A model generated the notes under the pieces. The model worked only from the letters and a program-made list of their open reading frames with translations, searched no databases and was not told where the DNA came from. DNA of 64,000 nt, taken from contig JAFUNJ010000009.1 in assembly GCA_017482355.1 (NCBI GenBank), positions 165,229-229,228 of the forward strand, written 5' to 3'. The translations under genes were made by a program, and so were the position numbers. Shown piece after piece: positions 13,733-45,501 of the stretch. Position 1 is the stretch's first letter; each line of letters starts with the position of its first letter. This stretch comes from Clostridia bacterium (GTDB taxonomy: Bacteria; Bacillota; Clostridia; Oscillospirales; CAG-272).

Positions 13733-13736
13733 GGAT

Positions 13737-26984: not shown

Positions 26985-27402
26985 AAGACGCGGAGGTCCG
27001 CACGATAGTAAAAGATATTTCGACTGGCTTGAGCGATCAGAATGTGACCTTGATTCCGCACGCATATTAAAGGATAATAACGGCGACAACTGCAACGCCG
27101 CATTTCACTGTCAGCAGTGCATTGAAAAGGCGCTCAAGGGGTATCTTCTCTTTAAAAACGGCAAGCACGTTGACGGACATAACCTGACATTCCTTTGCAG
27201 GAGTGCCTGCCGAATCGACAGGAAATTCGATGAGTGGCTCGACGAAAGCACTTCGCTCAACAGATACTATATCGAAACCCGATATCCGACCGACGTCGGT
27301 TTTGATATTACCGACGCGGAGCTTGACAAGGTCTATAAAATGGCTTACGATATGTACGTTTTTATTTTTGGCGTCATATCGGACGATGTCGTTAAAAAAT
27401 AA
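26977..27402 (+). CDS. HEPN domain protein
   Basis: AFHCQQCIEKALKGYLL...GHNLTFL...YYIETRYP matches the PF05168-type HEPN pattern (xHdL...sRYP). Confidence 0.7.
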   Translation: MGRRRGGPHDSKRYFDWLERSECDLDSARILKDNNGDNCNAAFHCQQCIEKALKGYLLFKNGKHVDGHNLTFLCRSACRIDRKFDEWLDESTSLNRYYIETRYPTDVGFDITDAELDKVYKMAYDMYVFIFGVISDDVVKK

Positions 27403-27816: not shown

Positions 27817-27845
27817 TAGACAAGAATGCGAGTATGTAGTATAAT
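27817..27845 (+). promoter_or_regulatory. Candidate SigA-type promoter
   Basis: TAGACA (27817-27822), 17-nt spacer, TATAAT (27840-27845). Confidence 0.45.
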
Positions 27846-29397: not shown

Positions 29398-29800
29398 TGC
29401 AAACGGAATAAGAGCTAAACCTGCTTTTTTTCGCGATTCATCTGTTGTTCACATATCCATCACAATTGTTTACATTTGATAACAAATAAATGATAATTTA
29501 AGACAAATTTCTTATAGAAGAAAATTCGGTTGCGTGTTATACTAATTTTGCAAAAAAGCGATAAAAAACCATCGAATTTTGGCGTTAATATGTTATAATT
29601 GCAAAAGATTTTCGGTCAAAAGTTAAAAAAACGTTAATTTATCAAAGTTTTTTGTAACAATTGCAAAAAAGCAAAAAGCAGAGTTTTAACATATTGCACA
29701 AGAGATGGTGCGCGTTTTCGCAATGATATGGTTTTAACATTTGCCGTATTGCATACGCAAATGTCAAAATATAAAAAATATTTTCAAAAAGGAGAAAATC

Positions 29801-31264
29801 ATGAAGAAGTTTGTTTTACTTCTTATCGCAGCTTGCATGCTGATCACATGCTTCGCTTGCGGTGGCGGCAAGGACGAAGGCAAAAAAGAGCCCGCATGGA
29901 TAGACGATCCTAATCTGAAGCCGACTGAAAACAAGTGGGAAGACCTCCCCGAATACGACGGAGAAGGTACTGACTTCAGAATCAGCACCAGAGGACACTA
30001 CGGTGCAATGGAGGTCGTTGTTGACGACGAAACGTCCGAAAACATCGTTGACCAGGCGCTCGTTCTCAGAAACTCTAAGGTTGAGGACAGATACAGCGTA
30101 TTTATCGTACGTCAGGATAATGACGGTGCTCAGTACGCTCACCTTAACCAGGTTCTTTCCGACTGTACCATGCAGGCTGATAACTTCGACCTCGCTATGA
30201 CCTACGTCTACGAGAGCGCACCCCTTATCACTAACGGATTCGTTCTTAACTGGAACAATCTTAAGTACAACAAGCTCGAAGAGTCTCACTGGATCCACGG
30301 TATGAACGACGAGTTCTCCGTCCGTGACGCGATCTACACTGCTATTTCCAAGATGTGTATTTCTACTATCGGTCAGACTGTTGCTATGCTTTACAACCGT
30401 GACCTCGGTGACCAGTGGAAGGGCGAAGAGTTCTCTTCTGAACTTATCGAGACGATCAACAACGGCGACTGGACCTACGACGAGCTCATGAAGATCGTAA
30501 ACGACTTCAACTGGGACGACGCTACCGGTGACGGTAAGACCGCAGACGACACTTGCGCATTCTTCATGTCTAAGGACTGGATGATCGATACCTGGCATGC
30601 TGCATGGCAGGTTCCCATGATCAAGAACAGCGTTGAAAACGGTCTTGAGAACGTATACATGAGCCAGAAGCTCCTTGACTATACGAGCAGAATGCACACC
30701 ATGTACTACGAGACTCCCGGTATCTTTACCGGTAACGGAGGAGAAGCTTACACTGCATTTGCTACCGGTAAGTCACTCTTCGTTCAGGCAGGACTTAGCG
30801 CTACTATCGGTTACTTCCAGGAAACGATGACTGACTATACATACACCATCATTCCTCAGCCGAAGTTCGACGAGAACCAGGAGAAGTACTACTCTGCAAT
30901 GACCGATAACTACTCTGTAATGTCTATTCCGATCACTGCAGACGCTGACATCGTTTCTCTCCTCGTTGAAGCACTTTCCATCGCTTCTGAGGCACACGTA
31001 TATCCTGCATACAAGTTCGACGCACTTCAGGGTCAGGTCGTTTCCGACGTTGACTCGATGTTCGACATCGTTCTTGATAGCGTTTCTTGGGACATCGGAA
31101 CACTCCTTCACTCCAAGGTTCCTTTCATGGACATGGTTCGTGTAGACGTTAACTTGAACGAAGGAAACAGCCAGATCCAGCAGTCTTACGATGCTATCGC
31201 GGATGACGTTCAGGACGCTCTTGACGAGATAATGACGGCATTCGACGAATTCCAGGAGAACTAA
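29801..31264 (+). CDS. Extracellular solute-binding-type lipoprotein (large family-1 sugar SBP-like), orphan
   Basis: Start moved to ATG 29801 (AAAGGAG RBS). Lipobox LITCFAC-GGG. Motifs typical of ~500-aa clostridial sugar SBPs: RNSKVEDRYSVFI, NFDLAM, GDWTYDELMKIVNDF..DATGDGKTADDTCAF. No permease or ATPase gene adjacent. Confidence 0.6.
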   Translation: MKKFVLLLIAACMLITCFACGGGKDEGKKEPAWIDDPNLKPTENKWEDLPEYDGEGTDFRISTRGHYGAMEVVVDDETSENIVDQALVLRNSKVEDRYSVFIVRQDNDGAQYAHLNQVLSDCTMQADNFDLAMTYVYESAPLITNGFVLNWNNLKYNKLEESHWIHGMNDEFSVRDAIYTAISKMCISTIGQTVAMLYNRDLGDQWKGEEFSSELIETINNGDWTYDELMKIVNDFNWDDATGDGKTADDTCAFFMSKDWMIDTWHAAWQVPMIKNSVENGLENVYMSQKLLDYTSRMHTMYYETPGIFTGNGGEAYTAFATGKSLFVQAGLSATIGYFQETMTDYTYTIIPQPKFDENQEKYYSAMTDNYSVMSIPITADADIVSLLVEALSIASEAHVYPAYKFDALQGQVVSDVDSMFDIVLDSVSWDIGTLLHSKVPFMDMVRVDVNLNEGNSQIQQSYDAIADDVQDALDEIMTAFDEFQEN

Positions 31265-31397
31265 ATACTGATCAGTAATCGCTGACATCGGAAAAGCGGC
31301 GACGCTGCCCGTTAAACGGCTTGCTGACAACTAAGGGGGGGCGACTAAATGTCGCTCCCCTATTGCATTTTCCCAAATAAAACTAAGGGGAACTGAT

Positions 31398-33746
31398 ATG
31401 AAAAGATTTGTCTCAGTAATACTTATTCTTGTCACTATGCTCGCGCTGTTTGCCTGCGCAAACGGCGGCGACGGAGAGGAAGTTGTTACAACAACGAAAG
31501 AAGTGGTGACGGCCAGACCGAAGGACACTAATAAAAATCCGAACACAACAACGCCCTCGACGACGCAGCCGTCAACGACCGTTCCTGCCGTAACCGAGCC
31601 GCCTATAAAAGGCACGTTAGCGAAATTTAATCTCGGTATCGGAACCGTATCAAGCGGTAATTACCGATTTGCCGCGTACGAGCTTTCCGAAAAAAAGTTT
31701 TACGAGCTTGAAGCAGCAAAAAGATCGACATGGAGCTCCGATTATCCCGGTCATCATATGATCTACCGTCCCGATATTTATACAGTCTCAAAATCTGAGG
31801 GAACCGGAATAGTCGACCTTATGTGTACCGCCAATTACGGTTCCGCAGTAGTGTATACCGCATACGATAACGGAAGCGCTACGATCGTTGCTGAGGCATA
31901 TAAGCTTTGGGCGAACGATGTGAAGCTGGATGTTCTTCTTCTCAAGGGCGACGGAACTGTCCTTGCAGAGGAAAGAAATATCAGTAACAAAAAGAATATT
32001 TCCTTTGAGGAAACTGTAAAGCTTGTCCGCGGAGATATTGTATTTCTCCTCGTAAAATACAGTGATACAAGCAAAAAAGAAAGCGGACAGAACGTAGTTC
32101 TTAAAAAATTCGAGGTTTACTTAGACAAACATAAGGTTAGCCAAACGACGAAGCTTCCGTCGGTGACTGACGATAATATAACCGCGTGGGCTACACATTC
32201 CTACGATAAGATCGTTCTCAATGCGCCGAATAACACCGGTACTACGAAATACACGGTCAATATGGCGAAGAACGAGACCGAGGGCTGTCAGCTCGTCGTT
32301 ATGAACTCGGCTTCGTCGGGTTCGAAGAAAGGCAAGCTAGTTCTTGTGTCTGCGCCCGGCGGATCTATCAGCTCGAGTATGTATATGCTCGATAACTACG
32401 AGACTGTGAACGGAAATCAATATACCGATGCCTGCCGTCCCTATTACGGCACGCAGGTCACGATCGGTGCCGGCTCCGTTCTTCCGTTCCTTATTGAGTT
32501 TACGACATCGGCGGCTACCCCTATGGGTGACCAAAAATACGTTTACGCATTCGTGAACGATAAGGGAAAGGCGGTTGCGCTCTTTGAGGTGACCGTTCAC
32601 GTTTGGAATATCACACTGCCGACCGATAAGACCTTCCGCACCGCGGCGGGACTTGATAACTGGATGGCGGTAGTACACGAGGGTAAGCAGAACGCAAGCG
32701 ACGCCGAGTATCTTGAGCTTTTGAACAGCTATTACGGCTTTATGCTCGAGCATAACTTAAGTCCCTATCACTTGCCGGCGGATATTCTGAATAATTATGC
32801 CGACAAATATATGAGCAATCCCGCAGTCACCTTCTTCCTCGTTCCCTGTATTGGCGACGACGGAAATCTGCTTCCCGACTCGGAGATCCTCAAATATTAT
32901 AAGAAGTTGAAGACAAATAAGACCTGGCTTTCCAAGGCAGTGTTCTATCCTCTTGACGAGCCGCATACGAAGGAGCAGGTCGAAAAATATAACCAGTTCT
33001 GCGAGCACCTTCGCAAGCTTTGTCCCGATATTCCCGTAATCGCGCCTTACTATACGAATTTCAAATGGGAAACGGGCATTTCAGGCGCACTCAGCAAGGA
33101 TGACCAGACGAACCACATGTATAACGATTCGGGTATCTGGTGTCCGAAGCTCTGTCTTTGGGACGACGATCAGGCGTACTATGATTTCGGTAAGTACGTA
33201 AGGCCCGATCAGTCTTATGCCGACAGAATGGAGGCAAAGCGCGCCGAGGGAAGTGAGCTCTGGACTTACGTTTGTAACGATCCCGATGATCCGTATTCAC
33301 AGCTTTTTGTTGATACCTTGGGCCAGAATCAGCGTCTGCTCTTCTGGCAGATATATCAGAGAAATATAAGCGGCTTCCTCTATTGGGGAACCAACAAGTG
33401 GGTTCAGTATAACGATTATACTAAGTTTATCGACCCATGGGAAAGTCTCGATAACGGTCTTGTTGACGCAAACGGCAACAAGGTCATAGGCGAGGGCAAC
33501 ATCTTCTATCCCGGCAAGCCCGCAGGTGTTGAAGGACCGGTTGCTTCTCTGCGTCTAAAGTACATCCGCGACGGTATCGATGATATCGAGCTTATGTATC
33601 TTGCGGAAAAGTATCTCGGCGAAAGCTGGGTGAAGGAAAAGACGAACGGCGCGACATCGTCCCTTACTTCCTTCTCTGATGCGGATACTCTTGCTGCAAT
33701 AAGAAAAGAGATCGGTGACGCTCTCGAAAAGAAAATCAACAAATAA
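31398..33746 (+). CDS. DUF4091/GH123-like putative glycoside hydrolase lipoprotein, paralogue P1, with extra N-terminal domain
   Basis: Lipobox LALFAC-ANGG, a T/P-rich linker, then a ~190-aa unique domain. Shared motif ladder follows: AWATHSYDKI, NETEGCQ, HVWNITLP, MLEHNLSPY, FYPLDEPHT, IWCPKLCLWDDD, WTYVCNDPDDPY, LLFWQIYQRNISGFLYW, GEGNIFYPG, LRLKYIRDGIDDIE. Confidence 0.6.
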   Translation: MKRFVSVILILVTMLALFACANGGDGEEVVTTTKEVVTARPKDTNKNPNTTTPSTTQPSTTVPAVTEPPIKGTLAKFNLGIGTVSSGNYRFAAYELSEKKFYELEAAKRSTWSSDYPGHHMIYRPDIYTVSKSEGTGIVDLMCTANYGSAVVYTAYDNGSATIVAEAYKLWANDVKLDVLLLKGDGTVLAEERNISNKKNISFEETVKLVRGDIVFLLVKYSDTSKKESGQNVVLKKFEVYLDKHKVSQTTKLPSVTDDNITAWATHSYDKIVLNAPNNTGTTKYTVNMAKNETEGCQLVVMNSASSGSKKGKLVLVSAPGGSISSSMYMLDNYETVNGNQYTDACRPYYGTQVTIGAGSVLPFLIEFTTSAATPMGDQKYVYAFVNDKGKAVALFEVTVHVWNITLPTDKTFRTAAGLDNWMAVVHEGKQNASDAEYLELLNSYYGFMLEHNLSPYHLPADILNNYADKYMSNPAVTFFLVPCIGDDGNLLPDSEILKYYKKLKTNKTWLSKAVFYPLDEPHTKEQVEKYNQFCEHLRKLCPDIPVIAPYYTNFKWETGISGALSKDDQTNHMYNDSGIWCPKLCLWDDDQAYYDFGKYVRPDQSYADRMEAKRAEGSELWTYVCNDPDDPYSQLFVDTLGQNQRLLFWQIYQRNISGFLYWGTNKWVQYNDYTKFIDPWESLDNGLVDANGNKVIGEGNIFYPGKPAGVEGPVASLRLKYIRDGIDDIELMYLAEKYLGESWVKEKTNGATSSLTSFSDADTLAAIRKEIGDALEKKINK

Positions 33747-33761
33747 CAAACGGAGGAACAA

Positions 33762-35432
33762 ATGAAAAGATCGCTTTTGATCTTGCTTGCGTTGTGTACG
33801 CTATTTACCTTTACTGCCTGCTCGGAAAGCGTCGTCGGCAAGCCGACGGAGAATGAACCTGTAGACGAAAAGCCGAGCGACGATTTTGAGTTCACTGCGC
33901 CGAACGACAATCCGAAAAGTGACGTTCAGGCGAGCGCGTGGACGGCTCATTCCTATACGAAAATAGCGGCAAACGGCACCGTTCCGACGTCAGCTTCGAC
34001 CTCTTATAAGGTCTATTTGGCAAGGGGTGAAACGGAGGGCTGTCAGGTGGCGGTCCGTACCGAATCAAACTGCACGCTGACGCTTAAATGCACCTATAAA
34101 GAGGATAATGATCTCGATTACGAGGTATTTATCCTTGATACAAATTATGATATAAACGGCGCGATCCTTCCCGATCCGGCGAAGCGATATGCGGAGGGAA
34201 CAAGCTTTGACTTAAAGGCGGGACAGACCCTTCCGTTCCTTATCGAATTTACACCTGCAAGCGGTACGAAGGCAGGGCATTATCCTTACGTTTTCGAGCT
34301 TCGCGATCCGTCAGACAAGACTGTTGCGCAGTTCGTGATAATCGTAAGAGTATGGGATATTACGCTTCCCGAGAAGCTGTCGTATCAAAGCTCGGTCACG
34401 GTATCGAAAAAAGATATTGCAGATTACTTTTCCGTAGGTGAAGAAGAGGTCACCGACGAGATCTATCTTAACTACTACAATCTTCTTCTTGAACACAATC
34501 TGAGTGCAAGAGATCTTCCTTACGATATTCTCGATCCGCGCGCCGATGCTTATATGTCGGATCCTCGTGTTACGGCGTTCAGGGTGCCGCATGATGTTTC
34601 GGACGAAACGCTGGAAGCATATTATAAGAAGCTTAAAACGAATACAAAATGGCTCAAAAAGGCGTTTTTCATGCCGGCAAGCGAGCTTTCCACCGAAGAA
34701 GAAATTGAGGCATTTTGCCTTGAAGCAAAACGTCTTCAGGGCATTTGCAGGGCGATAAAGATCACGTGTCCGATGAATCAGGATGTCCAGATTGATCCTC
34801 GCGGCTGGGACCAAGTCAACGCGATGAAGGGCTGGTGTACCCTCTGGTGTCCGAAGCTATGCCTTTGGGACGACGAGATCTCGTACGGCAAGCACGATTA
34901 CGTTCACAGCATGTCATTTGAAGCGAGAATGAGAAAGATGATGAGCGAAGACTTCGGCGTTTGGACGTACCTTTCTTACACGCCGGGCGAGCCGTATACC
35001 GCGCTTGTGGTCGATCACCCGGGACTTGATCAGCGAGTTGTTTTCTGGCAGCAGTATCAGAGAGGAATTCACGGGTTTATATACTGGTCGTCGACTGCCT
35101 GGAGCGTCTTTAACAAGGTCGATCCGTGGCAGAGCGTTGATACCGGTCTTTACGACGAAAAGGGCAATCACGTTTACGGCGACGGCATCTTATTCTATCC
35201 AGGAGAGAGCGTTTCCGATGCTCCGACGGTATCCTTGCGCATGAAGATAATGCGTGACGGTATCGACGATATCGAGCTTCTCAGGTACGCGGCGCAGACG
35301 CTCGGAAACAAATGGGTGAACGAGTGTGTTAACTCGATATCCTCGTCGCTCACGTCGATAGAAGCGACTGACGACGTTTTCGCACAGATCAGAATCGAAA
35401 TCGGAAGCGCGCTTGAAAAAGCACTTCCGTAA
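33762..35432 (+). CDS. DUF4091/GH123-like lipoprotein, paralogue P2 (divergent; putative catalytic DE replaced by SE)
   Basis: Lipobox LFTFTAC-SES. Motifs AWTAHSYTKI, GETEGCQ, RVWDITLPE, LLEHNLSAR, LWCPKLCLWDDE, GDGILFYPG, LRMKIMRDGIDDIE. However FFMPASELST aligns with FY.IDEP.T, and WTYLSYTPGEPY aligns with W.YVCNDP..PY. Confidence 0.6.
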   Translation: MKRSLLILLALCTLFTFTACSESVVGKPTENEPVDEKPSDDFEFTAPNDNPKSDVQASAWTAHSYTKIAANGTVPTSASTSYKVYLARGETEGCQVAVRTESNCTLTLKCTYKEDNDLDYEVFILDTNYDINGAILPDPAKRYAEGTSFDLKAGQTLPFLIEFTPASGTKAGHYPYVFELRDPSDKTVAQFVIIVRVWDITLPEKLSYQSSVTVSKKDIADYFSVGEEEVTDEIYLNYYNLLLEHNLSARDLPYDILDPRADAYMSDPRVTAFRVPHDVSDETLEAYYKKLKTNTKWLKKAFFMPASELSTEEEIEAFCLEAKRLQGICRAIKITCPMNQDVQIDPRGWDQVNAMKGWCTLWCPKLCLWDDEISYGKHDYVHSMSFEARMRKMMSEDFGVWTYLSYTPGEPYTALVVDHPGLDQRVVFWQQYQRGIHGFIYWSSTAWSVFNKVDPWQSVDTGLYDEKGNHVYGDGILFYPGESVSDAPTVSLRMKIMRDGIDDIELLRYAAQTLGNKWVNECVNSISSSLTSIEATDDVFAQIRIEIGSALEKALP

Positions 35433-35443
35433 GGAGGCATATT

Positions 35444-37108
35444 ATGAAAAAGATCATATCCATTCTTCTTATTGTTTGTACGCTGTTTTCTGTGGTTGCT
35501 TGCGGCGGAAAAAACAGTGACGGTTCAAAAAATAATTCCAATGAAAAGCCAAGCGTAGCGGCAAATATTACCTCCTATGCTACGCATTCCTATAATAAGA
35601 TAATTGCGAACATTAAGCCGAAGGGTAATTTGTCCTCGGATTATACGGTATATATGACAAGGGGCGAGACCGAGGGCTGTCAGCTTGTAATTTACAGTGA
35701 TCAGGCGGTAAAAAAGGTTGAGCTTGTTACCGTTTCGGGTGAAAACGAGAGCATTACGACCGAGTTTTTCTCGATGAACAATACTCACAAAATAGGCGGT
35801 AAACAGTATACAGACTCCACCTTCCCCTATGGTAAGAAGGATATTTCGCTTGAAGTGAAAAAGTCGCTTTCATTCGTTATCGACTTCAAAACGACTGCCG
35901 ATACTCCTGCAGGTGAATATAAGTATGTCTTTGCGATCAACGATGCATCGGGAAAGAAGAGCGTGCAGCTTGCAACCTACAACGTGACGGTTCACGTTTG
36001 GGATATAGTTCTTCCCGAGGAAAAGACCTTTGCAACCTCAGCGGGTATTAATACATATCATATCGGCCGTTTCTACGGCGGCGGTTGCGGTCCTGCTCTC
36101 TACAAGCAGTTCTACGATATGCTTCTTGAGCACAATATCTGTGCTCATACGCTCCCGTACGATATTCTCGACTCTCGCGCAGACGAATATATGTCCGATC
36201 CGCGCGTAACGTCGTTCGTGGTTCCGTCCGCCCCGGATGATCTTTCCGATGAGGAAATACTTGCTTATTACAACAAGCTGAAACAAAATCCCGAATGGCT
36301 CAAGAAGGCGATCTTCTATCCTATAGACGAGCCGTCCACTAAGGAGGATCTTGCAAAATATAAGGAGCACTGCGAGCGCCTTAAGCGCCTTGCCCCTGAA
36401 ATTCCCGTAATTTCCCCCTTCTATACGAATATTCAGATGGAAGAGGGCAAGGACCAGGTCGACTTCATGGATCCCTATACCGATCTTTGGTGTCCTAAGC
36501 TCTGCCTTTGGGACGACAGCCAGTCGTACGATCCCTTCCTCGATTACACTCCGAACAAGACCTTTGCCGATAGAATGGCAGAGATGCAGAGCGAGGGCGA
36601 CAGAATGTGGGCATACGTTTGTAACGATCCCATTGATCCTTACGCACAGCTCTTCATCAATACCGCCGGCGTTGAGCAGCGTCTCATGATGTGGCAGCAC
36701 TATCAGCGCAACATCGAGGGCTTCCTCTACTGGGGAACGACAGCTTGGGGATATAAGACAAATGAGCAGACGACATACAATAACATCGACCCATGGGAGA
36801 CCACCTTCAACGGTGTCCGCGACGGAAACGGCAGCCCCGTTTACGGAGAGGGCTTCCTCTTCTATCCGGCAGGTCTTGATATGAGAATGTTTGAGCCGGT
36901 CTCATCTATCCGTATGAAGATACTCCGCGACGGAATCGACGATATCGAGTTCTTCTACGTTGCAGAGAACGCTCTCGGTAAAGAATGGGTAATGAATTAC
37001 GTAAATCAGGCAACTCCGACTCTTACGAGCTACGTGACTAATGAGCAATTTGCAAATATCAGAATTGAAATGGGCAACGCAGTCGAAGCTGCCCTCAAGA
37101 ATAAATAA
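35444..37108 (+). CDS. DUF4091/GH123-like putative glycoside hydrolase lipoprotein, paralogue P3
   Basis: Lipobox LFSVVAC-GGK. Full motif ladder including GETEGCQ, HVWDIVLPEEKTF, FYPIDEPST, LWCPKLCLWDDSQSY, WAYVCNDPIDPYAQLF, GFLYW, IRMKILRDGIDDIE. Confidence 0.6.
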   Translation: MKKIISILLIVCTLFSVVACGGKNSDGSKNNSNEKPSVAANITSYATHSYNKIIANIKPKGNLSSDYTVYMTRGETEGCQLVIYSDQAVKKVELVTVSGENESITTEFFSMNNTHKIGGKQYTDSTFPYGKKDISLEVKKSLSFVIDFKTTADTPAGEYKYVFAINDASGKKSVQLATYNVTVHVWDIVLPEEKTFATSAGINTYHIGRFYGGGCGPALYKQFYDMLLEHNICAHTLPYDILDSRADEYMSDPRVTSFVVPSAPDDLSDEEILAYYNKLKQNPEWLKKAIFYPIDEPSTKEDLAKYKEHCERLKRLAPEIPVISPFYTNIQMEEGKDQVDFMDPYTDLWCPKLCLWDDSQSYDPFLDYTPNKTFADRMAEMQSEGDRMWAYVCNDPIDPYAQLFINTAGVEQRLMMWQHYQRNIEGFLYWGTTAWGYKTNEQTTYNNIDPWETTFNGVRDGNGSPVYGEGFLFYPAGLDMRMFEPVSSIRMKILRDGIDDIEFFYVAENALGKEWVMNYVNQATPTLTSYVTNEQFANIRIEMGNAVEAALKNK

Positions 37109-37120
37109 GCATTAAACAAA

Positions 37121-37173
37121 AGCCGAAACGAAATTCCCGAAAAAATGAGCAAAATGGATTTTTCGTTTCGGCT
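37121..37173 (+). other. Long-stem hairpin in the only sizeable intergenic gap inside the paralogue array
   Basis: AGCCGAAACGAAA (37121-37133) pairs with TTTCGTTTCGGCT (37161-37173) around a ~27-nt loop. There is no U-tract after it, so it is probably not a full terminator. Confidence 0.5.
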
Positions 37174-37197
37174 TGGAGGGCATTATCGGAGGATATT

Positions 37198-38853
37198 ATG
37201 AAAAAACTTTTGCTATTAATTATCACGTTTTCCATGATAATTTCGCTTTTTGCGTGCAATAAGGATGGTGGAAAAAAGGATGACGGCGAAAGCGCAGGAA
37301 ACGGCGAAACCGGAGAAAATGAAGTTATCAACGTAAGTGCGTGGACAACGCATCTGACTGATAAGCAGATAGCTAACGTTAAGCCCAAGGATATAAGCTC
37401 GGGCACTGTTTACGACCTTTATATGATGAGAGGCGAGACTGAGGGCTGTCAGCTTATTATATACAGTGATAAGGACATCAAAAAGGGTGTCATGGAATCG
37501 GAGCTTAATAAGTACGAAGACAAGAACCTGACTTCGGAAATATTCATAATGAACAGATCTCATAACATAAAGGGAAAGAAATGGACGGACTCCGCTGTTC
37601 CTTATTACGGCACGAAGATCGCTTTTGATTCGAGATTGGTAATTCCGTTTATCGTTGAATTTACTACTACAAAGGATACTCCCGCAGGCGATTATACTTA
37701 TAGCTATGAGTTCAAAAATGCGGCAAGCGACGAAGCTTTGGCGAGCTTTACCGTAAACGTACACGTTTGGGATATAGTTCTTCCCGAAGAAAAGACCTTT
37801 GCGACCTCGGCAGGAATAAACGGCGCTCAGATCTCAAGATTTGACAGAGGTTCCGAGATGTATAAAAAGTACTACGATATGCTTCTCGAGCATAATATCT
37901 GCGGACACGTGCTGCCTTACGATATTCTCGACGAGAGAGCAGAGGCGTATATGTCCGATCCTCGCGTAACGTCGTTCGTTATCGGAATCTGGGACGCAAA
38001 GCTTTGGGACGACGAGAAGCTCCTTCAGTATTATAACCGCGTAAAAGAGAACCCCGAATGGTTCAAAAAGGCGATATTCTACGTTATAGACGAGCCGACT
38101 ACCGAGGAAGCACTGGCTAATTACAGGGAATATTGCGACCGTTTTGCAAAGCTTTGCCCCGGAATCGGTGTTATCGCGCCCTTCTATACCAATACCCAGA
38201 CGGGCGTAGGCAAGGACCAGGTAGACGCAATGGCGCCGAGCACGATCCTTTGGTGTCCTAAGCTCTGCCTTTGGGACGACAGCGAGTCCTATGATCCTTT
38301 TCTTGATTACACTCCCGAAAAATCCTTCGCTGAGAGAATGAAGGAATTTCAGGCAGAGGGTGACGTTGTTTGGGCATACGTTTGTAACGCTCCGACGTCT
38401 CCTTACGCACAGCTCTTTATTGATACCGACGGTCTTGTTCAGCGACTTATGATGTGGCAGCACTATCAGCGCGATATCGAGGGCTTCCTTTACTGGGGAG
38501 TCTCGACGTGGGGTTATGACGGCAAGAACGTCGACCCATGGGAGAAGCCGTTCAACGGTGTTGGCGACGGCAATGGAAATCTCGTTTACGGAGAGGGCTT
38601 CCTCTTCTATCCCGGCACACCCATTGGTATTCCGGGACCGATTGCGACGAGCCGTCTTAAGATCCTCCGCGACGGAATCGACGACATCGAGATGTTCTAC
38701 CTTGCAGAAAAGTATCTCGATAAGGAATGGCTGATGGAAAAGATAAATGAGGCAACTCCGTCTCTTACATCCTATACATCTGAAGAAAACTTCTATAAGA
38801 TTCGTAAAGAAATAGGCGACGCGCTTGAAGCGGCACTTAAAAATCAAAAATAA
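37198..38853 (+). CDS. DUF4091/GH123-like putative glycoside hydrolase lipoprotein, paralogue P4
   Basis: Lipobox IISLFAC-NKD. Motif ladder complete (AWTTHLTDKQIANVKPK, GETEGCQ, HVWDIVLPEEKTF, FYVIDEPTT, LWCPKLCLWDDSESY, WAYVCNAPTSPYAQLF, GFLYW, SRLKILRDGIDDIE). Confidence 0.6.
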   Translation: MKKLLLLIITFSMIISLFACNKDGGKKDDGESAGNGETGENEVINVSAWTTHLTDKQIANVKPKDISSGTVYDLYMMRGETEGCQLIIYSDKDIKKGVMESELNKYEDKNLTSEIFIMNRSHNIKGKKWTDSAVPYYGTKIAFDSRLVIPFIVEFTTTKDTPAGDYTYSYEFKNAASDEALASFTVNVHVWDIVLPEEKTFATSAGINGAQISRFDRGSEMYKKYYDMLLEHNICGHVLPYDILDERAEAYMSDPRVTSFVIGIWDAKLWDDEKLLQYYNRVKENPEWFKKAIFYVIDEPTTEEALANYREYCDRFAKLCPGIGVIAPFYTNTQTGVGKDQVDAMAPSTILWCPKLCLWDDSESYDPFLDYTPEKSFAERMKEFQAEGDVVWAYVCNAPTSPYAQLFIDTDGLVQRLMMWQHYQRDIEGFLYWGVSTWGYDGKNVDPWEKPFNGVGDGNGNLVYGEGFLFYPGTPIGIPGPIATSRLKILRDGIDDIEMFYLAEKYLDKEWLMEKINEATPSLTSYTSEENFYKIRKEIGDALEAALKNQK

Positions 38854-38868
38854 TATACGGAGTAAGAA

Positions 38869-40518
38869 ATGAAAAAATTTTTACTTATCATTTTAACGCT
38901 TTCGATGCTTCTTTCACTCTTTGCATGCAATGAAGAAAGCAAAAAGAACGATGGCGAAGGCGGCGGAAAAAACGAAGTAAACAGTGAGATAAAGGTGGAA
39001 GCGTGGACAACGCATCTTACCGATAAGCAGATAGCTAACGTCAAGTCCAAGCCCGAGAACGCAAGCACAGTATATGACCTTTATATGATGAGGGGCGAAA
39101 CAGAGGGCTGTCAGCTTCTGATCTACAGCAGTGCGAAGATCAAAAAGAGCTTTTTGGATTTCGATTCCGATAAGTATGCGGATAAGAGCATAACCGCGAA
39201 TACTTATGTAATGAACGACACGGTCACTATCAAGAGGAAGGAATGGACCGATGCCGCTATGCCTTATTATGGCAGAAAGATCGCTTTTGCGGCGAAAAAG
39301 ACGATTCCTTTTATTGCTGAATTTACAACCACTAAGGATACTCCCGCAGGCGATTATACCTATACCTATGAGTTCAAGGACGGTACGACAAACGAGGTCT
39401 ATGCGACCTTTACGGTAAACGTTCACGTATGGGACATTGTTCTTCCCGAAGAAAAGACCTTTGCTACGTCCGTCGGAATCAACGCTTATCATATCGAAAG
39501 ATTTGATAAGGGCAACAAGATGTATAAGCAGTATTACGACCTTCTTCTTGAACACAATATCTGCGGACATACGCTTCCTTACGATATTATGTCCGAGGAG
39601 GCAGAAGCGTACATGTCCGATCCGAACGTAACGTCGTTCGTTATTGGACTTTGGAGCGCAAACACGTGGACTAATGAGAAGGTAGTTCAGTACTATAACC
39701 GCGTCAAGGAAAATCCCGAATGGTTCAAGAAGGCGTTCTTCTACGTTATCGACGAGCCGTCGACTGACGATAAAATTCAGGAGTATAACGAGATCTGTGA
39801 AAGATTTGCACGCCTTGCCCCCGGAATCGGCGTAATTGCTCCGTTCTATACGAATCAGCAGATGGGTGAGGGTAAGGATCAGGTAGACGCAATGGCTCCG
39901 AAGACCATTCTCTGGTGCCCGAAGCTCTGCCTCTGGGACGACAGTCAGTCATACGAACCCTTCCTCGATTATACGCCGTCAAAGACCTTTGCAGAGAGAA
40001 TGAAGGACTTCCAGAAGGAGGGGGACGTTGTCTGGTCATACGTATGTAACGACCCGATCTCTCCCTACGCACAGCTCTTTATAGATACCGACGGTCTTGT
40101 GCAGCGTCTTATGATGTGGCAGCACTATCAGCGTGAGATCGAGGGATTCCTCTACTGGCAGACTACCTCTTGGGGTTACCGCCAGGAAGGAAGCGATATG
40201 AACCCTTGGGAGAAGGCGTATAACGGCGTGCAGGACGGCGACGGCAGACCCGTTTACGGCGAGGGTTACCTCCTTTATCCCGGAACTCCCGTTGGCTTTG
40301 GCGGACCGGTTGCTTCAATTCGTCTGAAGATCCTCCGCGACGGAATCGACGATATCGAAATGTTCTACCTTGCAGAGAAGTATCTCGACAAGGATTGGCT
40401 TGACTCGAAGATCAATGAGGCAACTCCCTCCCTCACTTCCTATACGTCGGAAGAAAACTTCTACAAAATACGCAAAGAAATAGGCGACGCGCTTGAAGCG
40501 GAGCTTAAAGCAAAATAA
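38869..40518 (+). CDS. DUF4091/GH123-like putative glycoside hydrolase lipoprotein, paralogue P5
   Basis: Lipobox LLSLFAC-NEE. The closest relative of P4 (AWTTHLTDKQIANVKSK, FFYVIDEPST, identical C-terminal SLTSYTSEENFYKIRKEIGDALEA). Confidence 0.6.
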   Translation: MKKFLLIILTLSMLLSLFACNEESKKNDGEGGGKNEVNSEIKVEAWTTHLTDKQIANVKSKPENASTVYDLYMMRGETEGCQLLIYSSAKIKKSFLDFDSDKYADKSITANTYVMNDTVTIKRKEWTDAAMPYYGRKIAFAAKKTIPFIAEFTTTKDTPAGDYTYTYEFKDGTTNEVYATFTVNVHVWDIVLPEEKTFATSVGINAYHIERFDKGNKMYKQYYDLLLEHNICGHTLPYDIMSEEAEAYMSDPNVTSFVIGLWSANTWTNEKVVQYYNRVKENPEWFKKAFFYVIDEPSTDDKIQEYNEICERFARLAPGIGVIAPFYTNQQMGEGKDQVDAMAPKTILWCPKLCLWDDSQSYEPFLDYTPSKTFAERMKDFQKEGDVVWSYVCNDPISPYAQLFIDTDGLVQRLMMWQHYQREIEGFLYWQTTSWGYRQEGSDMNPWEKAYNGVQDGDGRPVYGEGYLLYPGTPVGFGGPVASIRLKILRDGIDDIEMFYLAEKYLDKDWLDSKINEATPSLTSYTSEENFYKIRKEIGDALEAELKAK

Positions 40519-40542
40519 AACATAATAACAAGGAGAAAAGCT

Positions 40543-41994
40543 ATGAAAACCTGGATGACTTACGGTTTTGATAAGATCGTAGCCGACAAGCCGGCGCCGA
40601 ACGAACTCAAAAAGACGTTTACCCTTTACCTTACAAAGGGCGGAAACGGCAACTGTCAGATCGCCGTCAACAGCGATACCGATACCGCGGTTTCTCTTAA
40701 AACGGTTTCGAGCGGCGTGAAGTGCGATATCTTTACAGCAGATCACACTCTTACGATAAACGGTCATCAGTATACCGACCCGATCCTTCCGTACAGCGGC
40801 GAGCCCATTGCCGTCAAGGGCGGAATGACACTTCCGTTCTTCCTTGATTTCAAGGCAGAGGAAGCGGGGGACTATACTGCGACCTTCGAGCTTTGCGAAA
40901 ACGGAAGCGTTGAGACCTTTACCGTTTCGCTTCACGTCTGGAGCTTTGCGCTTCCCGAAAATAAGACTTTTGCGACTGCCTGCGGTGTAAATGCGTACAG
41001 GATCGCAAAATATGATAAGTCCGAGGATGCTCATAAAAGATATTACGACTTTCTCCTTGAGCACTGTATGTGCGGATATGATCTACCCTACGATATTCTT
41101 GACGATAGAGCCGATGCTTATATGTCGGATCCCCGCGTAACGTCCTTTATCGTTCCTTCGGATGATGACGAAAAGACCGTGGCTTACGTAAATAAGATCA
41201 AGAGCAATCCCGTATGGCTAAGCAAGGCGCTCTTCTATTCGATCGACGAGCCGCACACACTTGAGCTTATAGAGACCTTTAAGCAAAAGGTTTCGCGTCT
41301 CAAGAATCTCGCTCCCGAAATTCCTTCGATCGTTCCCGTTTATACCAATCTTCAGGTCGGAGAGGGCAAGGATCAGTTCGACGAAATGGCTCCTTATCTT
41401 GACCTTTGGTGCCCGAAGCTCTGCCTCTGGGAGGACGGTCAGTCCTATACGCCTTTCCTTGACTATACCCCCGAAAAGAGCTTTGAAACGAGAATAAACG
41501 AGGTTATGGATAAGGGTCAGCGAGTTTGGTCTTACGTTTGTAACGACCCGATCACGCCCTACTCGCAGATGTATATCGACACCGACGGCCTTATGCAGCG
41601 TCTTCTTATGTGGCAGCATTATCAGAGAAAGATAATCGGCTTCCTTTACTGGAGCGTTGTTGCCTGGGTAAAAGGTGATAAGACTTCTTGGGAAGAGCCG
41701 TTCAACGGAATCGGCGACGGACAGGGAAAACCCGTTTACGGCTGCGGATATCTCGTATATCCCGGACAGCCCGTCGGATATGACGGACCTGTTGCTACCC
41801 AGCGTCTTAAGATACTTCGTGACGGTTTATCCGACGTTGAGCTTCTTGCTCTGGCAGAGAAGCATTTCGGACGCGAATGGGTAATGGAAAGAGTAAACGA
41901 GGCAACTCCGACACTTACCACTTACACTACTTATGACAGATTTGATGAAATAAGAAAAGAGATCGGTGACGCCCTAGAAGCGGCGCTCAAATAA
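40543..41994 (+). CDS. DUF4091/GH123-like putative glycoside hydrolase, paralogue P6, no signal peptide (cytoplasmic)
   Basis: Starts MKTWMTYGFDKIVADKPAP directly at the conserved W-T-x-x-F-D-K-I motif. GGNGNCQ replaces GETEGCQ. FYSIDEPHT, LWCPKLCLWEDGQSY, WSYVCNDPITPY and QRLKILRDGLSDVE are retained. Confidence 0.6.
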   Translation: MKTWMTYGFDKIVADKPAPNELKKTFTLYLTKGGNGNCQIAVNSDTDTAVSLKTVSSGVKCDIFTADHTLTINGHQYTDPILPYSGEPIAVKGGMTLPFFLDFKAEEAGDYTATFELCENGSVETFTVSLHVWSFALPENKTFATACGVNAYRIAKYDKSEDAHKRYYDFLLEHCMCGYDLPYDILDDRADAYMSDPRVTSFIVPSDDDEKTVAYVNKIKSNPVWLSKALFYSIDEPHTLELIETFKQKVSRLKNLAPEIPSIVPVYTNLQVGEGKDQFDEMAPYLDLWCPKLCLWEDGQSYTPFLDYTPEKSFETRINEVMDKGQRVWSYVCNDPITPYSQMYIDTDGLMQRLLMWQHYQRKIIGFLYWSVVAWVKGDKTSWEEPFNGIGDGQGKPVYGCGYLVYPGQPVGYDGPVATQRLKILRDGLSDVELLALAEKHFGREWVMERVNEATPTLTTYTTYDRFDEIRKEIGDALEAALK

Positions 41995-42026
41995 TCAGGA
42001 TCGATTTTACGAAAAGGAGAACTACT

Positions 42027-43532
42027 ATGAAAGCTTGGATAACTCAGAGTTTTGACAAAATTATCGCTGATATGCCCGCGCCTGAAAAGCTCGATAAGGA
42101 TATCACCCTTTATTTTACGAAGGGCGGAAAGGGCGGCTGTCACGTCGTTGTAAACAGCGACACCGATACGAAGGTATCCCTTAAAGCAATCGCCCCTGAG
42201 GGCGTTAAGTGCAAGATTTATTCCGAGGATCATATCCACGAAATACAGGGTCATCTTTTCGTTGACCCGATCGTTCCTTACGAGGGTGAAGCTCTTTCTG
42301 TTAAGTCAGGAATTTCGCTTCCTTTCTACGTTGATCTCGAAGCAAAAAACGCAGGCGATCACATCGTTACGCTCCTTCTTTGCGACGGTGACGGAAATAC
42401 CGTTGATACCTTTACTGCGAATCTGCACGTCTGTCATTTCTCGCTTCCTGCAGAGAAGAGCTTTGCGACTTCCGTCGGTATCAACAGATGGCATATCGGA
42501 CGCTTTGAACCCGAGCCCGATGCACATAAGTCGTATTATGACCTTCTTCTTGAAAACAATATCTGCGGTCATAATCTTCCGTACGATATCCTCGATCCCC
42601 GCGCAGACGCATATATGTCTGACCCGAACGTAACCTCCTTCGTTATCGGTCTTTGGGAAGCAAAGAACTGGTCGGACGAGAAGATAACCGAATACTTCAA
42701 CAAAGTTAAGAGCAATCCCGAATGGCTAAAGAAGGCGATCATTTACGTTATCGACGAGCCCTCGACCGAGGAAGCACTCGCAAAATACAAGGAGATCTGC
42801 GAAAGATTTGCCCGTCTTTGCCCCGGAATCGGAGTAATTTCTCCTTTCTATACGAACAAACAGATGGGCGATAAGATGGATCAGGTCGACGCTATGGCAC
42901 CCTCTACCATTCTATGGTGTCCCAAGCTCTGTCTTTGGGATGAGAGTCAGTCCTATACCCCTTTCCTTGACTATTCCCCTGAAAAGAGCTTCGGCGAGCG
43001 CTTTAAGGACTTCCAAAAGCGCGGAGATACCGTTTGGGGTTACGTTTGTAATGCACCGCTTACGCCTTATGCACAGCTCTTTATAGATACCGAAGGTCTT
43101 GTGCAGCGACTCATGATGTGGCAGCACTATCAGCGCGATATTACAGGTTTCCTCTACTGGGGGACTACCTCATGGGGCTATCACGGAAACGACGGTGTAA
43201 ACCCCTGGGATACCGCATATAACGGCGTAAGAGGGTGCAACCCCGGCGAGGAGGCAAATGCTGAACTCATTTGCGGAGAAGGATTCCTTATGTATCCAGG
43301 TTCCGTTATCGGACGCCCCGGTGCTATCGGTTCTATCCGTATGAAGATACTCCGCGATGCTCTTGACGATATCGAGCTTCTTGCGCTTGCGGAAAAGTAT
43401 CTTGGCAAGGATTGGGTAATGGCAAAGGTGGACGAGGCAACTCCCACTCTCACCAGCTATACCACTCCCGAAAGATTCATCGAGATCAGAAAAGAGATCG
43501 GTGACGCGCTCGAGGCGGTTGTAAAGCCGTAA
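42027..43532 (+). CDS. DUF4091/GH123-like putative glycoside hydrolase, paralogue P7, no signal peptide (cytoplasmic), mosaic
   Basis: Starts MKAWITQSFDKIIADMPAPE with GGKGGCH. The central region (SFVIGLWEAKNWSDEK...IIYVIDEPSTEEALAKYKEICERFARLCPGIGVISPFYTN) resembles P4/P5 rather than P6/P8. Confidence 0.6.
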   Translation: MKAWITQSFDKIIADMPAPEKLDKDITLYFTKGGKGGCHVVVNSDTDTKVSLKAIAPEGVKCKIYSEDHIHEIQGHLFVDPIVPYEGEALSVKSGISLPFYVDLEAKNAGDHIVTLLLCDGDGNTVDTFTANLHVCHFSLPAEKSFATSVGINRWHIGRFEPEPDAHKSYYDLLLENNICGHNLPYDILDPRADAYMSDPNVTSFVIGLWEAKNWSDEKITEYFNKVKSNPEWLKKAIIYVIDEPSTEEALAKYKEICERFARLCPGIGVISPFYTNKQMGDKMDQVDAMAPSTILWCPKLCLWDESQSYTPFLDYSPEKSFGERFKDFQKRGDTVWGYVCNAPLTPYAQLFIDTEGLVQRLMMWQHYQRDITGFLYWGTTSWGYHGNDGVNPWDTAYNGVRGCNPGEEANAELICGEGFLMYPGSVIGRPGAIGSIRMKILRDALDDIELLALAEKYLGKDWVMAKVDEATPTLTSYTTPERFIEIRKEIGDALEAVVKP

Positions 43533-43555
43533 TTTTTGACACACTGGAGCATAAT

Positions 43556-45052
43556 ATGAAAACATGGATAACTCACGGCTTCGATAAGATCATAGCCGAT
43601 ATGCCTGCGCCCGAGGTGCTTAAGAAAGAGTTTTCACTCTCTCTTACCAATGGCGGCGAGGGCGGCTGTCAGATCGCTCTCAGAAGCGAAACGGACGGTA
43701 AGGTACAGCTAAAAACGAAGTCTTGCGAGGGCGCTTCGGTCAAGCTCTATTCCGAGCATCTTACGCACGAAATTAAGGGTCACCGATATACCGACTGTAT
43801 CGTTCCTTACGAGGGCGAAATTCTCGATATTAAGGGCGGGCTTTCACTTCCTTTTTACCTTGATTTCAAGGCGGAGAGCGCAGGCGATCATACCGCTGTC
43901 TTTGAGCTTTGCGACGGTGAGGGCAATACTGTCGAAACCTTCACAGTAAAGCTTCACGTATGGAGTTTCTCGCTTCCCGAGACCAAAACTTTCGCGACTG
44001 CAGTCTGGACTGCCGAGCGCTATATAACGAAGTTTGATAGAGGCATGAAGGGCGACATCTGCGATAACTATAAGGAATACTACGACCTGCTTCTCGAGCA
44101 CGGTCTGTCTTCCTACAATCTTCCCTATGACGTTCTCGATCCCCGCGCGGACGAGTATATGTCAGACCCGAGAGTAACCTCCTTCGCGATCGGTATCTGG
44201 GCGCTTGACAACCTGACCGACGAGGAGCTTGCAGCTTATTACGATAAGCTTAAGAGCAACCCCGTCTGGCTGAGCAAGGCAATGGTATATCCGCTCGACG
44301 AGCCGAGAGAGCCGCATCATCTTATTAAGTACAGAGAGGCGTGCGAGCGCTTCATTCGACTCTGCCCCGAGATGAGCCGCGTGTCTCCCTTCTATACCAA
44401 TCTTCAGGTCGGAGAGGGGAGAGACCAGGTCGATGAGATGGCGCCGACTACTAATCACTGGTGCCCGAAGCTCTGTCTTTGGGACGACGATCAGTCGTAC
44501 GACGCGTTCCTTGACTATAAGCCCGAAAAGTCCTTTTGGACCCGTATGGATGAATATAAGGCAAAGGGCGATAAGATGTGGTGCTACGTTTGTAACGACC
44601 CGATAACTCCTTACGCTCAACTCTTTATCGACACTCCCGGAAATATGCAGAAGGCGATGTTCTGGCAGATGTATCAGAGAGATATAGACGGCTTCCTCTA
44701 CTGGGGAACCAACTATTGGGGCTACTGGGCAGGCGACGTCGATCCTTGGGAAAACGTCTGCAACGGAGTCGGCGACGGGCAGGGTAATCCCGTATACGGC
44801 GAGGGCTTCCTGCTCTATCCCGGAACGAAGATCGGCAAGCCCGGTCCTCTTGCGACCACCCGTCTTAAGACCATCCGCGATGCGGTAAACGATATTGAGC
44901 TCTTCAATCTCGCAGGAACGTATCTTGGCAGAGAATGGGTAAAGGAGCGCATAAATAAGGCGACTCCCTCCCTTACCGAATACGCGTCCGACGACGTTAT
45001 GGCGGAAGTCAGAGCAGAGATCGGAAACGCTCTTGAAAAGGCAATGAATTGA
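43556..45052 (+). CDS. DUF4091/GH123-like putative glycoside hydrolase, paralogue P8, no signal peptide (cytoplasmic)
   Basis: Starts MKTWITHGFDKIIADMPAPE with GGEGGCQ. VYPLDEPRE, HWCPKLCLWDDDQSY, WCYVCNDPITPYAQLF, GFLYW, TRLKTIRDAVNDIE. Confidence 0.6.
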   Translation: MKTWITHGFDKIIADMPAPEVLKKEFSLSLTNGGEGGCQIALRSETDGKVQLKTKSCEGASVKLYSEHLTHEIKGHRYTDCIVPYEGEILDIKGGLSLPFYLDFKAESAGDHTAVFELCDGEGNTVETFTVKLHVWSFSLPETKTFATAVWTAERYITKFDRGMKGDICDNYKEYYDLLLEHGLSSYNLPYDVLDPRADEYMSDPRVTSFAIGIWALDNLTDEELAAYYDKLKSNPVWLSKAMVYPLDEPREPHHLIKYREACERFIRLCPEMSRVSPFYTNLQVGEGRDQVDEMAPTTNHWCPKLCLWDDDQSYDAFLDYKPEKSFWTRMDEYKAKGDKMWCYVCNDPITPYAQLFIDTPGNMQKAMFWQMYQRDIDGFLYWGTNYWGYWAGDVDPWENVCNGVGDGQGNPVYGEGFLLYPGTKIGKPGPLATTRLKTIRDAVNDIELFNLAGTYLGREWVKERINKATPSLTEYASDDVMAEVRAEIGNALEKAMN

Positions 45053-45056
45053 TATA

Positions 45057-45086
45057 AGCCCACCCGAATATCGGGTGGGCTTATTT
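45057..45086 (+). terminator. Rho-independent terminator closing the paralogue array
   Basis: AAGCCCACCCGA-ATAT-CGGGTGGGCTTATTTTT. This is the first strong terminator after 29.8 kb. Confidence 0.85.
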
Positions 45087-45144
45087 TTACATAACGAAAA
45101 GAGAGCACTTCTTTACGAAGTGTCTTTCTTTTTGCAGGTGCGTT

Positions 45145-45501
45145 TTACTTTTTTTCTTTTTGAAAAAGATAATATAATCCCGAAAGGACGAGAAGTCCTC
45201 CGTACATTTTTGATAGAAGCGCGTTTTTGATAAGCGACGCGGCAAGAGATCCGAGGACTGCCATCGGGATGCCTCCGACGGAAATAATCGCAAAGGTCTT
45301 TAAGTCGATAAGCTTGTTTTTGCGGTTGACCGCAAAAGCTCCGACGGCTGACGAAAGGAAGAATAATAGATTCACTCCCTGCGCCGTTATCTGCTTCATG
45401 CCGCTGACGGCAGTAAGATAGAGAACGAATATTCCGCCACCGCCGCCGAGACCGCAGAGGATAGCTATAGCAAACGCGGCGGTAATATCGAGTATTATCA
45501 C
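45145..45501 (-). CDS. Half-size TSUP (TauE/SafE-like) membrane protein
   Basis: 118 aa, four hydrophobic segments. GLGGGGGIF and the IPMAVLGS pattern are typical of TauE/SafE repeats. GTG start overlaps the spoVAF stop (GTGA). Confidence 0.5.
   Translation of the reverse strand: MIILDITAAFAIAILCGLGGGGGIFVLYLTAVSGMKQITAQGVNLLFFLSSAVGAFAVNRKNKLIDLKTFAIISVGGIPMAVLGSLAASLIKNALLSKMYGGLLVLSGLYYLFQKEKK

Follow-up and report, generated by a model that had tools for sequence, protein, structure and literature searches.

Glycoside hydrolase (GH) family 123 enzymes cleave beta-linked N-acetylgalactosamine (GalNAc) and N-acetylglucosamine (GlcNAc), sugars found in glycans of hosts and microbes, among them mucin O-glycans and glycosphingolipids. 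To our knowledge, few of these enzymes have been characterised, and almost no work has been done on the bacterial proteins related to its distant Groups 1 and 2. Gram-positive polysaccharide utilization loci (PULs) combine a solute-binding protein (SBP) with two permeases, a regulator and enzymes of mixed GH families. Here we describe an array of nine genes, G1 to G9, in a 64,000-nucleotide (nt) stretch of DNA from a Clostridia bacterium (GenBank assembly GCA_017482355.1, contig JAFUNJ010000009.1, positions 165,229 to 229,228; hereafter the window, within which all coordinates are given). Like the Gram-positive PULs, the array encodes, on a single strand, an SBP lipoprotein along with both secreted and cytoplasmic glycosidases; unlike them, it has neither permeases nor a regulator and uses a single GH family eight times.

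Orphan or expanded SBPs that share a distant membrane component are exemplified by Escherichia coli MppA, which works with OppBCDF, and by the Bordetella Bug family (PMC11452294). The SBP genes considered here resemble these in lying away from any permease gene and in the many-fold expansion of the family within a genome, and differ from them in encoding sugar-type Gram-positive lipoproteins, each paired with glycosidase genes. On the enzyme side, the nearest solved structure is that of NgaAt, the product of Arabidopsis AT1G45150 (PDB 8k2h/8k2i), a GH123 Group 2 beta-N-acetylhexosaminidase (Sumida et al. 2024, PMC11087588). NgaAt shares with G2-G9 a beta-sandwich plus (beta/alpha)8 barrel, the Asp-Glu (DE) motif and a conserved Tyr/Gly/Trp/Tyr/Arg set, whereas it is a single-copy plant protein without a lipobox. 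The classical GH123 exo-beta-N-acetylgalactosaminidases (NgaP; CpNga123, 5fqe; BvGH123, 5l7r) have the same Pfam family, fold and catalytic DE logic, but they are encoded as single genes, and their structural alignments give 9-14% identity.

Both the enzyme family and the SBP fold have been described before. The proteins of the array are new and distant members, none of which exceeds 19% identity to a solved structure. What is new relative to the literature searched (on GH123/DUF4091 arrays and on orphan SBPs) is the presence of eight copies of one GH family divided between two compartments, the conservation of a copy with an altered catalytic site and the lack of permease genes beside the SBP gene. 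No description of such an arrangement was found in that literature, in agreement with a first-pass annotation of the window, made from the sequence alone, which knew of no described locus of this type. With moderate confidence, we read the array as a chromosomal locus through which an uncultured Clostridia bacterium of the gut forages for glycans by capture, cutting and import.

An SBP lipoprotein gene followed by eight GH123 paralogues

The array and its transcription signals comprise the following features.

29398..29800, plus strand: promoter/leader region, AT-rich, 403 nt non-coding, conserved
29801..31264, plus strand: G1, 487-amino-acid (aa) SBP-fold lipoprotein (maltose-binding protein (MBP)-like, sugar type), ATG start with AAGGAG ribosome-binding site
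31335..31361, plus strand: hairpin in the G1-G2 gap, GC-rich, 11-bp stem with 8 GC pairs, weak T tract
31398..33746, plus strand: G2, 782-aa lipoprotein with GH123-like core, DE intact, PF13320 63.8 bits
33762..35432, plus strand: G3, 556-aa lipoprotein, GH123-like paralogue without the catalytic Asp, PF13320 43 bits
35444..37108, plus strand: G4, 554-aa lipoprotein, GH123-like, DE intact, PF13320 61.3 bits
37120..37174 (approximate), plus strand: hairpin in the G4-G5 gap, long, GC-rich, without T tract (RNAfold)
37198..38853, plus strand: G5, 551-aa lipoprotein, GH123-like, DE intact
38869..40518, plus strand: G6, 549-aa lipoprotein, GH123-like, DE intact
40543..41994, plus strand: G7, 483 aa, without signal peptide, GH123-like, DE intact
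42027..43532, plus strand: G8, 501 aa, without signal peptide, GH123-like, DE intact
43556..45052, plus strand: G9, 498 aa, without signal peptide, GH123-like, DE intact
45054..45084, plus strand: strong intrinsic terminator, 14-bp stem with 8 GC pairs, then TTTTT; end of the array

All eight paralogues score above the gathering cut-off of PF13320 (GH123_cat, formerly DUF4091), with 43-63.8 bits against 23.1, as expected from the DUF4091/GH123 membership proposed in the first-pass annotation. They are colinear, with pairwise identities of 37-72%, and the ladder of shared motifs that had been listed is visible in their alignment. Comparisons among them by tblastn gave E values from 1e-123 to 0, so that their paralogy is far beyond chance. 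All pairs fall at 37-57% identity except G5/G6, which at 72% is, by this measure, the youngest duplicate pair.

Searches of the PDB by sequence (phmmer) and by profile returned solely beta-N-acetylgalactosaminidases or hexosaminidases. NgaAt (8k2h) was the top match (E 4.6e-23 with G4 in phmmer, 1e-26 with the profile), with the Group 1 enzyme NgaCa (8k2f) close to it in the profile search (5.5e-24). The Group 3 enzyme NgaDssm followed (profile E 7e-18), the Group 4 enzymes NgaP2 and NgaLy matched more weakly, and the classical CpNga123 and BvGH123 gave no sequence match at E≤0.01. Within GH123, G2-G9 are shown to occupy a distant part, to which Groups 1 and 2 of Sumida et al. 2024 come closest.

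The AlphaFold (AF2) model of G2 has a core with a predicted local distance difference test score (pLDDT) above 90, folded as a beta-sandwich plus (beta/alpha)8 barrel that can be superposed on the solved GH123 enzymes. Its top 22 Foldseek matches in the PDB are GH123 structures (E 1.7e-33 to 2e-18; identity 9-19%), in line with the GH123-type fold that had been predicted. The best of them is NgaAt 8k2h (E 1.7e-33, target-normalised template modelling (TM) score 0.73-0.74, identity 17-19%), and NgaCa matches at E 4e-28. For the other seven paralogues we infer the same fold from their 39-47% identity to G2.

Catalysis is substrate-assisted in all GH123 groups, and nine residues are conserved family-wide, including Y392, G427, W431, Y466 and R478 of NgaLy (Sumida et al. 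2024, PMC11087588). These five align with Y391, G426, W430, Y474 and R490 of G4, and all eight paralogues have the same residue at each of these positions; the mapping of the two N-terminal conserved residues, D95 and W115, is uncertain. The (I/L)DEP motif of G2 and G4-G9 aligns with WDEP of NgaAt. The alignments thus show seven paralogues keeping the residues that would serve substrate-assisted cleavage of beta-GalNAc or beta-GlcNAc, namely the Asp-Glu pair and the Tyr/Gly/Trp/Tyr/Arg set. The PF13320 scores, the PDB matches, the fold and the aligned residues therefore support both the GH123 assignment and the catalytic pair proposed earlier, IDEP. That motif had been called nearly invariant, which holds for seven copies but not for G3, where ASEL is found. 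The predicted substrate is some glycan containing beta-linked N-acetylhexosamine (beta-HexNAc). Eight diverged copies at the surface and in the cytoplasm offer a natural panel for studying GH123 specificity, including oligosaccharide versus monosaccharide release.

The intergenic gaps from G1 to G9 measure 133, 15, 11, 89, 15, 24, 32 and 23 nt, in agreement with the nine plus-strand genes 11-133 nt apart described before. Each gene is preceded by a Shine-Dalgarno-like sequence; for G1, the start of the mechanically called open reading frame (ORF) is TTG at 29741, and the ATG at 29801, with its AAGGAG, is preferred. Stem-loops also occur in the G1-G2 and G4-G5 gaps, so the hairpin at 45054-45084, which closes the array as had been annotated, is the first strong terminator and not the sole stem-loop. 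Promoter-like matches within the array are not enriched (28 versus 21.9 ± 5.0 in shuffled sequence). Short gaps, a ribosome-binding site for each gene, a conserved promoter region and one strong terminator are operon-like features, and G1-G9 are probably co-transcribed from the conserved promoter 5' of G1. The hairpin in the G1-G2 gap is a possible partial terminator or mRNA stabiliser, which may lift the SBP transcript relative to those of the enzyme genes.

The leader upstream of G1 contains a promoter-like TTTACA-17-GATAAT at 29469-29497, repeated TTGCAAAAAAGC motifs and a near-perfect palindrome at 29732-29769 (13-bp arms 29732-29744 and 29757-29769) directly 5' of the ribosome-binding site. 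Aligned with the leaders of three related loci (window 29398-29800, L001 9598-10010, L007 9560-10010 and L014 3680-4123; L numbers denote loci of the comparison), it shows 81% mean column identity with long invariant blocks. The SBP proteins of these loci are 71-91% identical, and the leader is conserved beyond what would be expected from the coding gene. No Rfam family matches it, and compensatory changes occur in 4 of 74 predicted RNA pairs, in an alignment of four sequences that vary too little for covariation. The leader is probably regulatory, acting as DNA operators or as an RNA leader.

Two predicted compartments and a paralogue without the catalytic Asp

G1-G6 begin with MKK or MKR; a hydrophobic segment follows, and Cys20 ends the lipobox. 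The N-terminus of G1 reads MKKFVLLLIAACMLITCFAC, then GGG, and its Cys20 is invariant in 23 homologues. The N-termini of G7-G9, MKTW or MKAW, coincide with the conserved beginning of the mature domain, and no upstream in-frame start exists for any of the three. By these sequence rules, the five predicted lipoprotein and three leaderless GH123 copies distinguished in the first-pass annotation separate cleanly. The three copies without a leader group as one clade and have 1:1 orthologues in L007 and L017 (485-aa G7 orthologues at 85% identity), and in both loci the long forms come first and the short forms (485-502 aa) last, so that the split is conserved.

G2 had been taken for a protein of ~550 aa; it has 782, including an N-terminal extension of ~240 aa. 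Behind the lipobox lies a Thr/Pro-rich stalk (~residues 22-70) whose length differs among orthologues, followed by an extra domain of ~175 aa (~72-245) that is conserved in them. In the model, residues 145-243 form a beta-sandwich (pLDDT 73-86) and residues 22-144 are of low confidence. The extension is likely to be a spacer followed by a carbohydrate-binding module.

In G3, ASEL (SE) stands in place of IDEP (DE). In the G3 orthologues of nine loci, the Asp is replaced by G, V, L or Y (GE, VE, LE, YE). Among the 168 homologues spanning this motif, 158 have DE, and the ten that do not are all members of the G3 group. Further changes near the pocket are conserved within this clade: YTD to LPD, HVW to RVW, FYP to FMP, PFYTN to a PMNQD-like sequence and VCNDP to an LSYTP-like one. 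The pattern looks like selection on a remodelled site and not like decay. Because Asp-to-Glu and Asp-to-Asn mutants of the catalytic pair have little or no activity (PMC11087588), G3 is most likely not a hydrolase of the usual type.

As a possible pseudo-enzyme, this conserved paralogue without the Asp is a candidate for a natural lectin of enzymatic origin. A precedent is found in the GH18 chitinase-like proteins, inactive glycosidase homologues that serve as lectins and in which the acid/base Glu is usually lost. Like these, G3 keeps the fold and structural residues, has lost an essential catalytic residue and appears conserved under selection; unlike them, it has lost the Asp and retains the Glu, and its glycan binding is a prediction. 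The SBP gene and the gene for the Asp-less GH123 protein are the most conserved pair of the array, present in nine of the ten close loci with downstream sequence, and L013 consists of just these two.

Conservation of the array in related genomes

The first-pass annotation had proposed a search for the same synteny in other genomes. SBP-led GH123 arrays were found in L001, L002, L003, L007, L008, L009, L013, L014 and L017, and the related loci are labelled as metagenome-assembled genomes (MAGs) of Ruminococcaceae, Oscillospiraceae or Eubacteriales; the arrangement recurs in relatives, and the locus is not unique. The SBPs are 91% (L001 and L002), 77% (L007), 71% (L014) and 47% (L003) identical to G1. 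Several loci, for example L001, L002, L007, L009 and L017, also share the synteny upstream, with genes for SigE and SpoIIGA, a leucine-rich repeat protein, a P-type ATPase, a laccase-like protein, MazF, a HEPN protein and a DUF1080-like protein; L003 differs. The number of GH123 copies at the site ranges from none (L004/L012, with three SBP genes only) through one (L013, the Asp-less copy) and two (L009) to the eight of the window.

A neighbour-joining tree resolves five orthogroups, corresponding to G3, G2, G4, G5/G6 and G7-G9. In L001, L007, L014 and L017, 1:1 orthologues occur in the same order at 74-93% identity, with two exceptions: G2, which evolves fast (53-60%), and the G3 orthologue of L017, which is more distant (62%). 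Judged from these comparisons, the paralogues are shown to be old and diverged, with their order kept across related uncultured gut Clostridia.

These data bear on whether the copies might be largely redundant, serving dosage or surface-lipoprotein variation in a locus that is not one operon. The 72% identity of G5 and G6, the copy number that varies between genomes and the hairpins after G1 and G4 would fit such a reading. However, the other pairs are only 37-57% identical, and three cytoplasmic copies cannot serve surface variation. Moreover, 1:1 orthologues in the same order at 74-93% identity in other species argue for long-term retention of distinct functions, and we regard redundancy as quite improbable.

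Arrays of the same GH123 subfamily also exist without an SBP gene: seven copies in L088 (6613-21398), five plus two in L086 (2922-19714) and one plus four in L087 (1538-15249). One MAG contains both kinds (L008/L010 and L086). The arrays of L086 and L088 are followed by a ~818-aa protein with a GH42M-like domain, creatininase-family and GNAT_C genes are interspersed in L086, and a GH36-like (Melibiase) gene lies near the L087 array. Across 1.84 billion representative proteins, the paralogue profile matched 490 clusters at E≤1e-30 and 6024 at E≤1e-3. Some matches are multi-unit GH123-like proteins, with four stretches in P0283 (1964 aa), three in P0306 (1568 aa) and two each in P0278 and P0305; these may be fused arrays, or assembly or frameshift artefacts.

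Proposed sugar capture, the permease question and the genomic surroundings

G1 has no match in Pfam (E≤0.01) or NCBIfam, and nothing was found in PDB sequence searches with G1 (phmmer) or with a profile of 23 homologues. Its relatives P0001 and P0033-P0035 have weak precomputed matches to PF01547/PF13416 (SBP_bac_1/SBP_bac_8). The AlphaFold (AF2) model of G1 (pLDDT 86, predicted TM score 0.84) has more than 1000 Foldseek matches in the PDB at E≤0.001, headed by CbpB, MalE2 and the lacto-N-biose (LNB)-binding protein (E ~5e-12), with UgpB also among the top ones, at probability 1.0 and with target-normalised TM scores of 0.55-0.64 among the SBP matches. The predicted structure confirms a sugar-type, two-lobed, MBP-like SBP fold, and with it the SBP-type lipoprotein read earlier from the sequence. 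The tblastn searches of the window revealed no additional SBP or GH123 copy; a 487-aa ORF at 3679-5142, considered as a second SBP, was rejected and is an M23 peptidase with a G5 domain. In L005 (10001-12517) and L006 (70-2586), a stand-alone 838-aa protein has an SBP-like part 62% identical to G1; the match spans 93% of G1, and there are ~350 additional residues.

Pfam annotation of the window identified no sugar ATP-binding cassette (ABC) permease, import ATPase or regulator beside the array, so that their absence next to G1, reported in the first-pass annotation, extends to the whole window. A permease could be encoded beyond it. The 88 loci of the comparison (1.35 Mb) contain 183 SBP-like ORFs, often in tandem (seven in L022, five each in L035 and L068, three in L004/L012). 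They were searched for permeases by counts of hydrophobic segments, inspection of all polytopic ORFs of 250-345 aa and a regular expression for the EAA motif. Neither the CUT1 EAA motif in any ORF nor a pair of ~300-aa genes with six transmembrane segments was found in these loci; the candidates turned out to be SpoIIGA, BrkB-like, DMT-like and FecCD-like proteins.

At least 573 relatives of G1 were identified when one genome was scanned for each species. Of the matches listed, 79 loci were retained, and every one belongs to uncultured Clostridia from animal or human guts or from anaerobic digesters. Same-strand neighbours of the distant family members are varied genes for glycosidases and enzymes of sugar catabolism, encoding BNR sialidase-like, GH43, GH51, GH29, GH31, GH78, CBM9 and DHDPS-like proteins. 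From the census of 183 ORFs and these glycosidase neighbours it follows that encoding without a permease is a family-wide trait in the lineage, tied to glycan use. With SBP-like lipoproteins consistently encoded apart from permeases, glycan import in these abundant but uncultured gut Clostridia is unexplained by the standard Gram-positive PUL model.

In the model that we favour, the five lipid-anchored GH123 copies would act at the cell surface. G2 would extend outward on its Thr/Pro-rich stalk, with an extra domain that is probably carbohydrate-binding, and G3, without the Asp that positions the 2-acetamido group, would most likely bind the glycan and not cut it. G4-G6 would cleave beta-HexNAc linkages in differing contexts, and some may release oligosaccharides, like the characterised Group 1-3 enzymes. 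G1 would capture the released sugars and pass them on to an ABC permease whose genes lie elsewhere in the genome, after which the cytoplasmic G7-G9 would complete the breakdown of the imported oligosaccharides. Both this division of labour between surface and cytoplasm and the import through a distant permease are proposals from the combined data.

Several points count against this model. No CUT1 permease lies within 10 kb of the 183 SBP-like genes in the 1.35 Mb examined, and therefore the transport step depends on an unseen partner. Identity to any characterised enzyme is only 10-19%, and the signal peptides were called by inspecting the sequences and with a regular expression. The two internal hairpins, in the G1-G2 and G4-G5 gaps, could divide the transcript. 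G3 retains the Glu and all structural residues, and an altered catalytic activity is possible.

The same absence of permeases underlies the main rival explanation, according to which G1 is a surface glycan-binding protein (SGBP), a Gram-positive counterpart of SusD/SGBP that, together with G3, holds the substrate for the surface enzymes, with uptake of the products by an unrelated carrier. Permease genes normally adjoin their SBP gene, and neither a CUT1 EAA permease nor a pair of six-segment genes accompanies the 183 SBP-like ORFs in 1.35 Mb. The tandem arrays of up to seven SBP-like genes (L022) would also fit a binding role, as would the SBP and Asp-less GH123 pair, the most conserved one, which is present in nine of ten close loci and alone in L013. 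However, the top structural matches of G1 are all genuine transport SBPs, orphan SBPs with a distant permease, such as MppA with OppBCDF and the Bordetella Bug proteins, are well known, and three cytoplasmic paralogues imply the import of oligosaccharides. We consider a purely binding role for G1 unlikely, though it deserves to be kept in mind. More doubtful still is the broader proposal that the lineage has uncoupled capture from transport, with scores of permease-less SBP receptors, each encoded with glycosidases of its own, and a capture pair of SBP and G3-type paralogue that would present beta-HexNAc glycans to specialised surface enzymes, forming a Gram-positive, Sus-like analogue of SusD/SGBP built from different folds. 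The wider interest of the locus hinges on the permease-less SBP family reflecting such a new glycan-capture architecture.

The genes around the array, on which a further rival explanation draws, include the following.

5336-14726: polysaccharide biosynthesis cluster with GT4, DXD glycosyltransferase and three GT2 genes, Wzm/Wzt ABC-2 exporter genes and a pyruvyl transferase gene
14873-16051: dockerin protein with He_PIG Ig-like domain and type I dockerin
26247-26636: MazF/PemK toxin gene, followed by a small ORF and then a HEPN gene (26977-27402)
27875-28756: DUF6528 protein, in a two-gene unit with the DUF1080-like gene, the unit lying directly 5' of the SBP gene in many related loci; strong promoter-like site at 27817-27845
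28765-29397: DUF1080/3-keto-disaccharide-hydrolase-like protein, 210 aa, second gene of that unit
45113-45601, minus strand: 162-aa ORF overlapping the 3' end of the GerA-family gene, without Pfam match
45498-46922, minus strand: GerA-family spore germination gene, converging on the array terminator

By Pfam, the other flanking genes comprise sporulation genes (SpoIIGA, SigE, DpaA, GerA), a P-type ATPase gene and housekeeping genes. With sporulation genes around it and a Wzm/Wzt polysaccharide synthesis cluster 15 kb away, the array might trim the envelope of its own cell, acting on a beta-HexNAc wall polysaccharide, a teichoic acid or the spore cortex, and the cytoplasmic copies would then fit recycling. 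Yet the flanks are syntenic across loci in which the GH123 number goes from 0 to 8 (L004/L012, L013, L009, L017 and the window), a pattern of accessory nutrient loci; relatives of the SBP adjoin GH families for plant or host glycans, and other GH123 arrays border GH36-like and GH42-like genes. An envelope function has little probability, and both it and redundancy are less likely than a glycan-binding G1. The glycan-foraging reading remains the one we prefer.

The DUF1080-like gene was considered as a member of the array and rejected; it is a syntenic neighbour only, because it is widespread, lies 403 nt from G1 and has its own promoter. Its family (~208 aa) has 804 relatives at ~70% identity in hundreds of Clostridia, and neither it nor the DUF6528 protein has a match in the PDB. 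The 26247-27402 segment resembles adjacent toxin-antitoxin modules and is kept in L001, L002 and L004. The type I dockerin protein at 14873-16051 suggests that the organism assembles cellulosome-like surface complexes.

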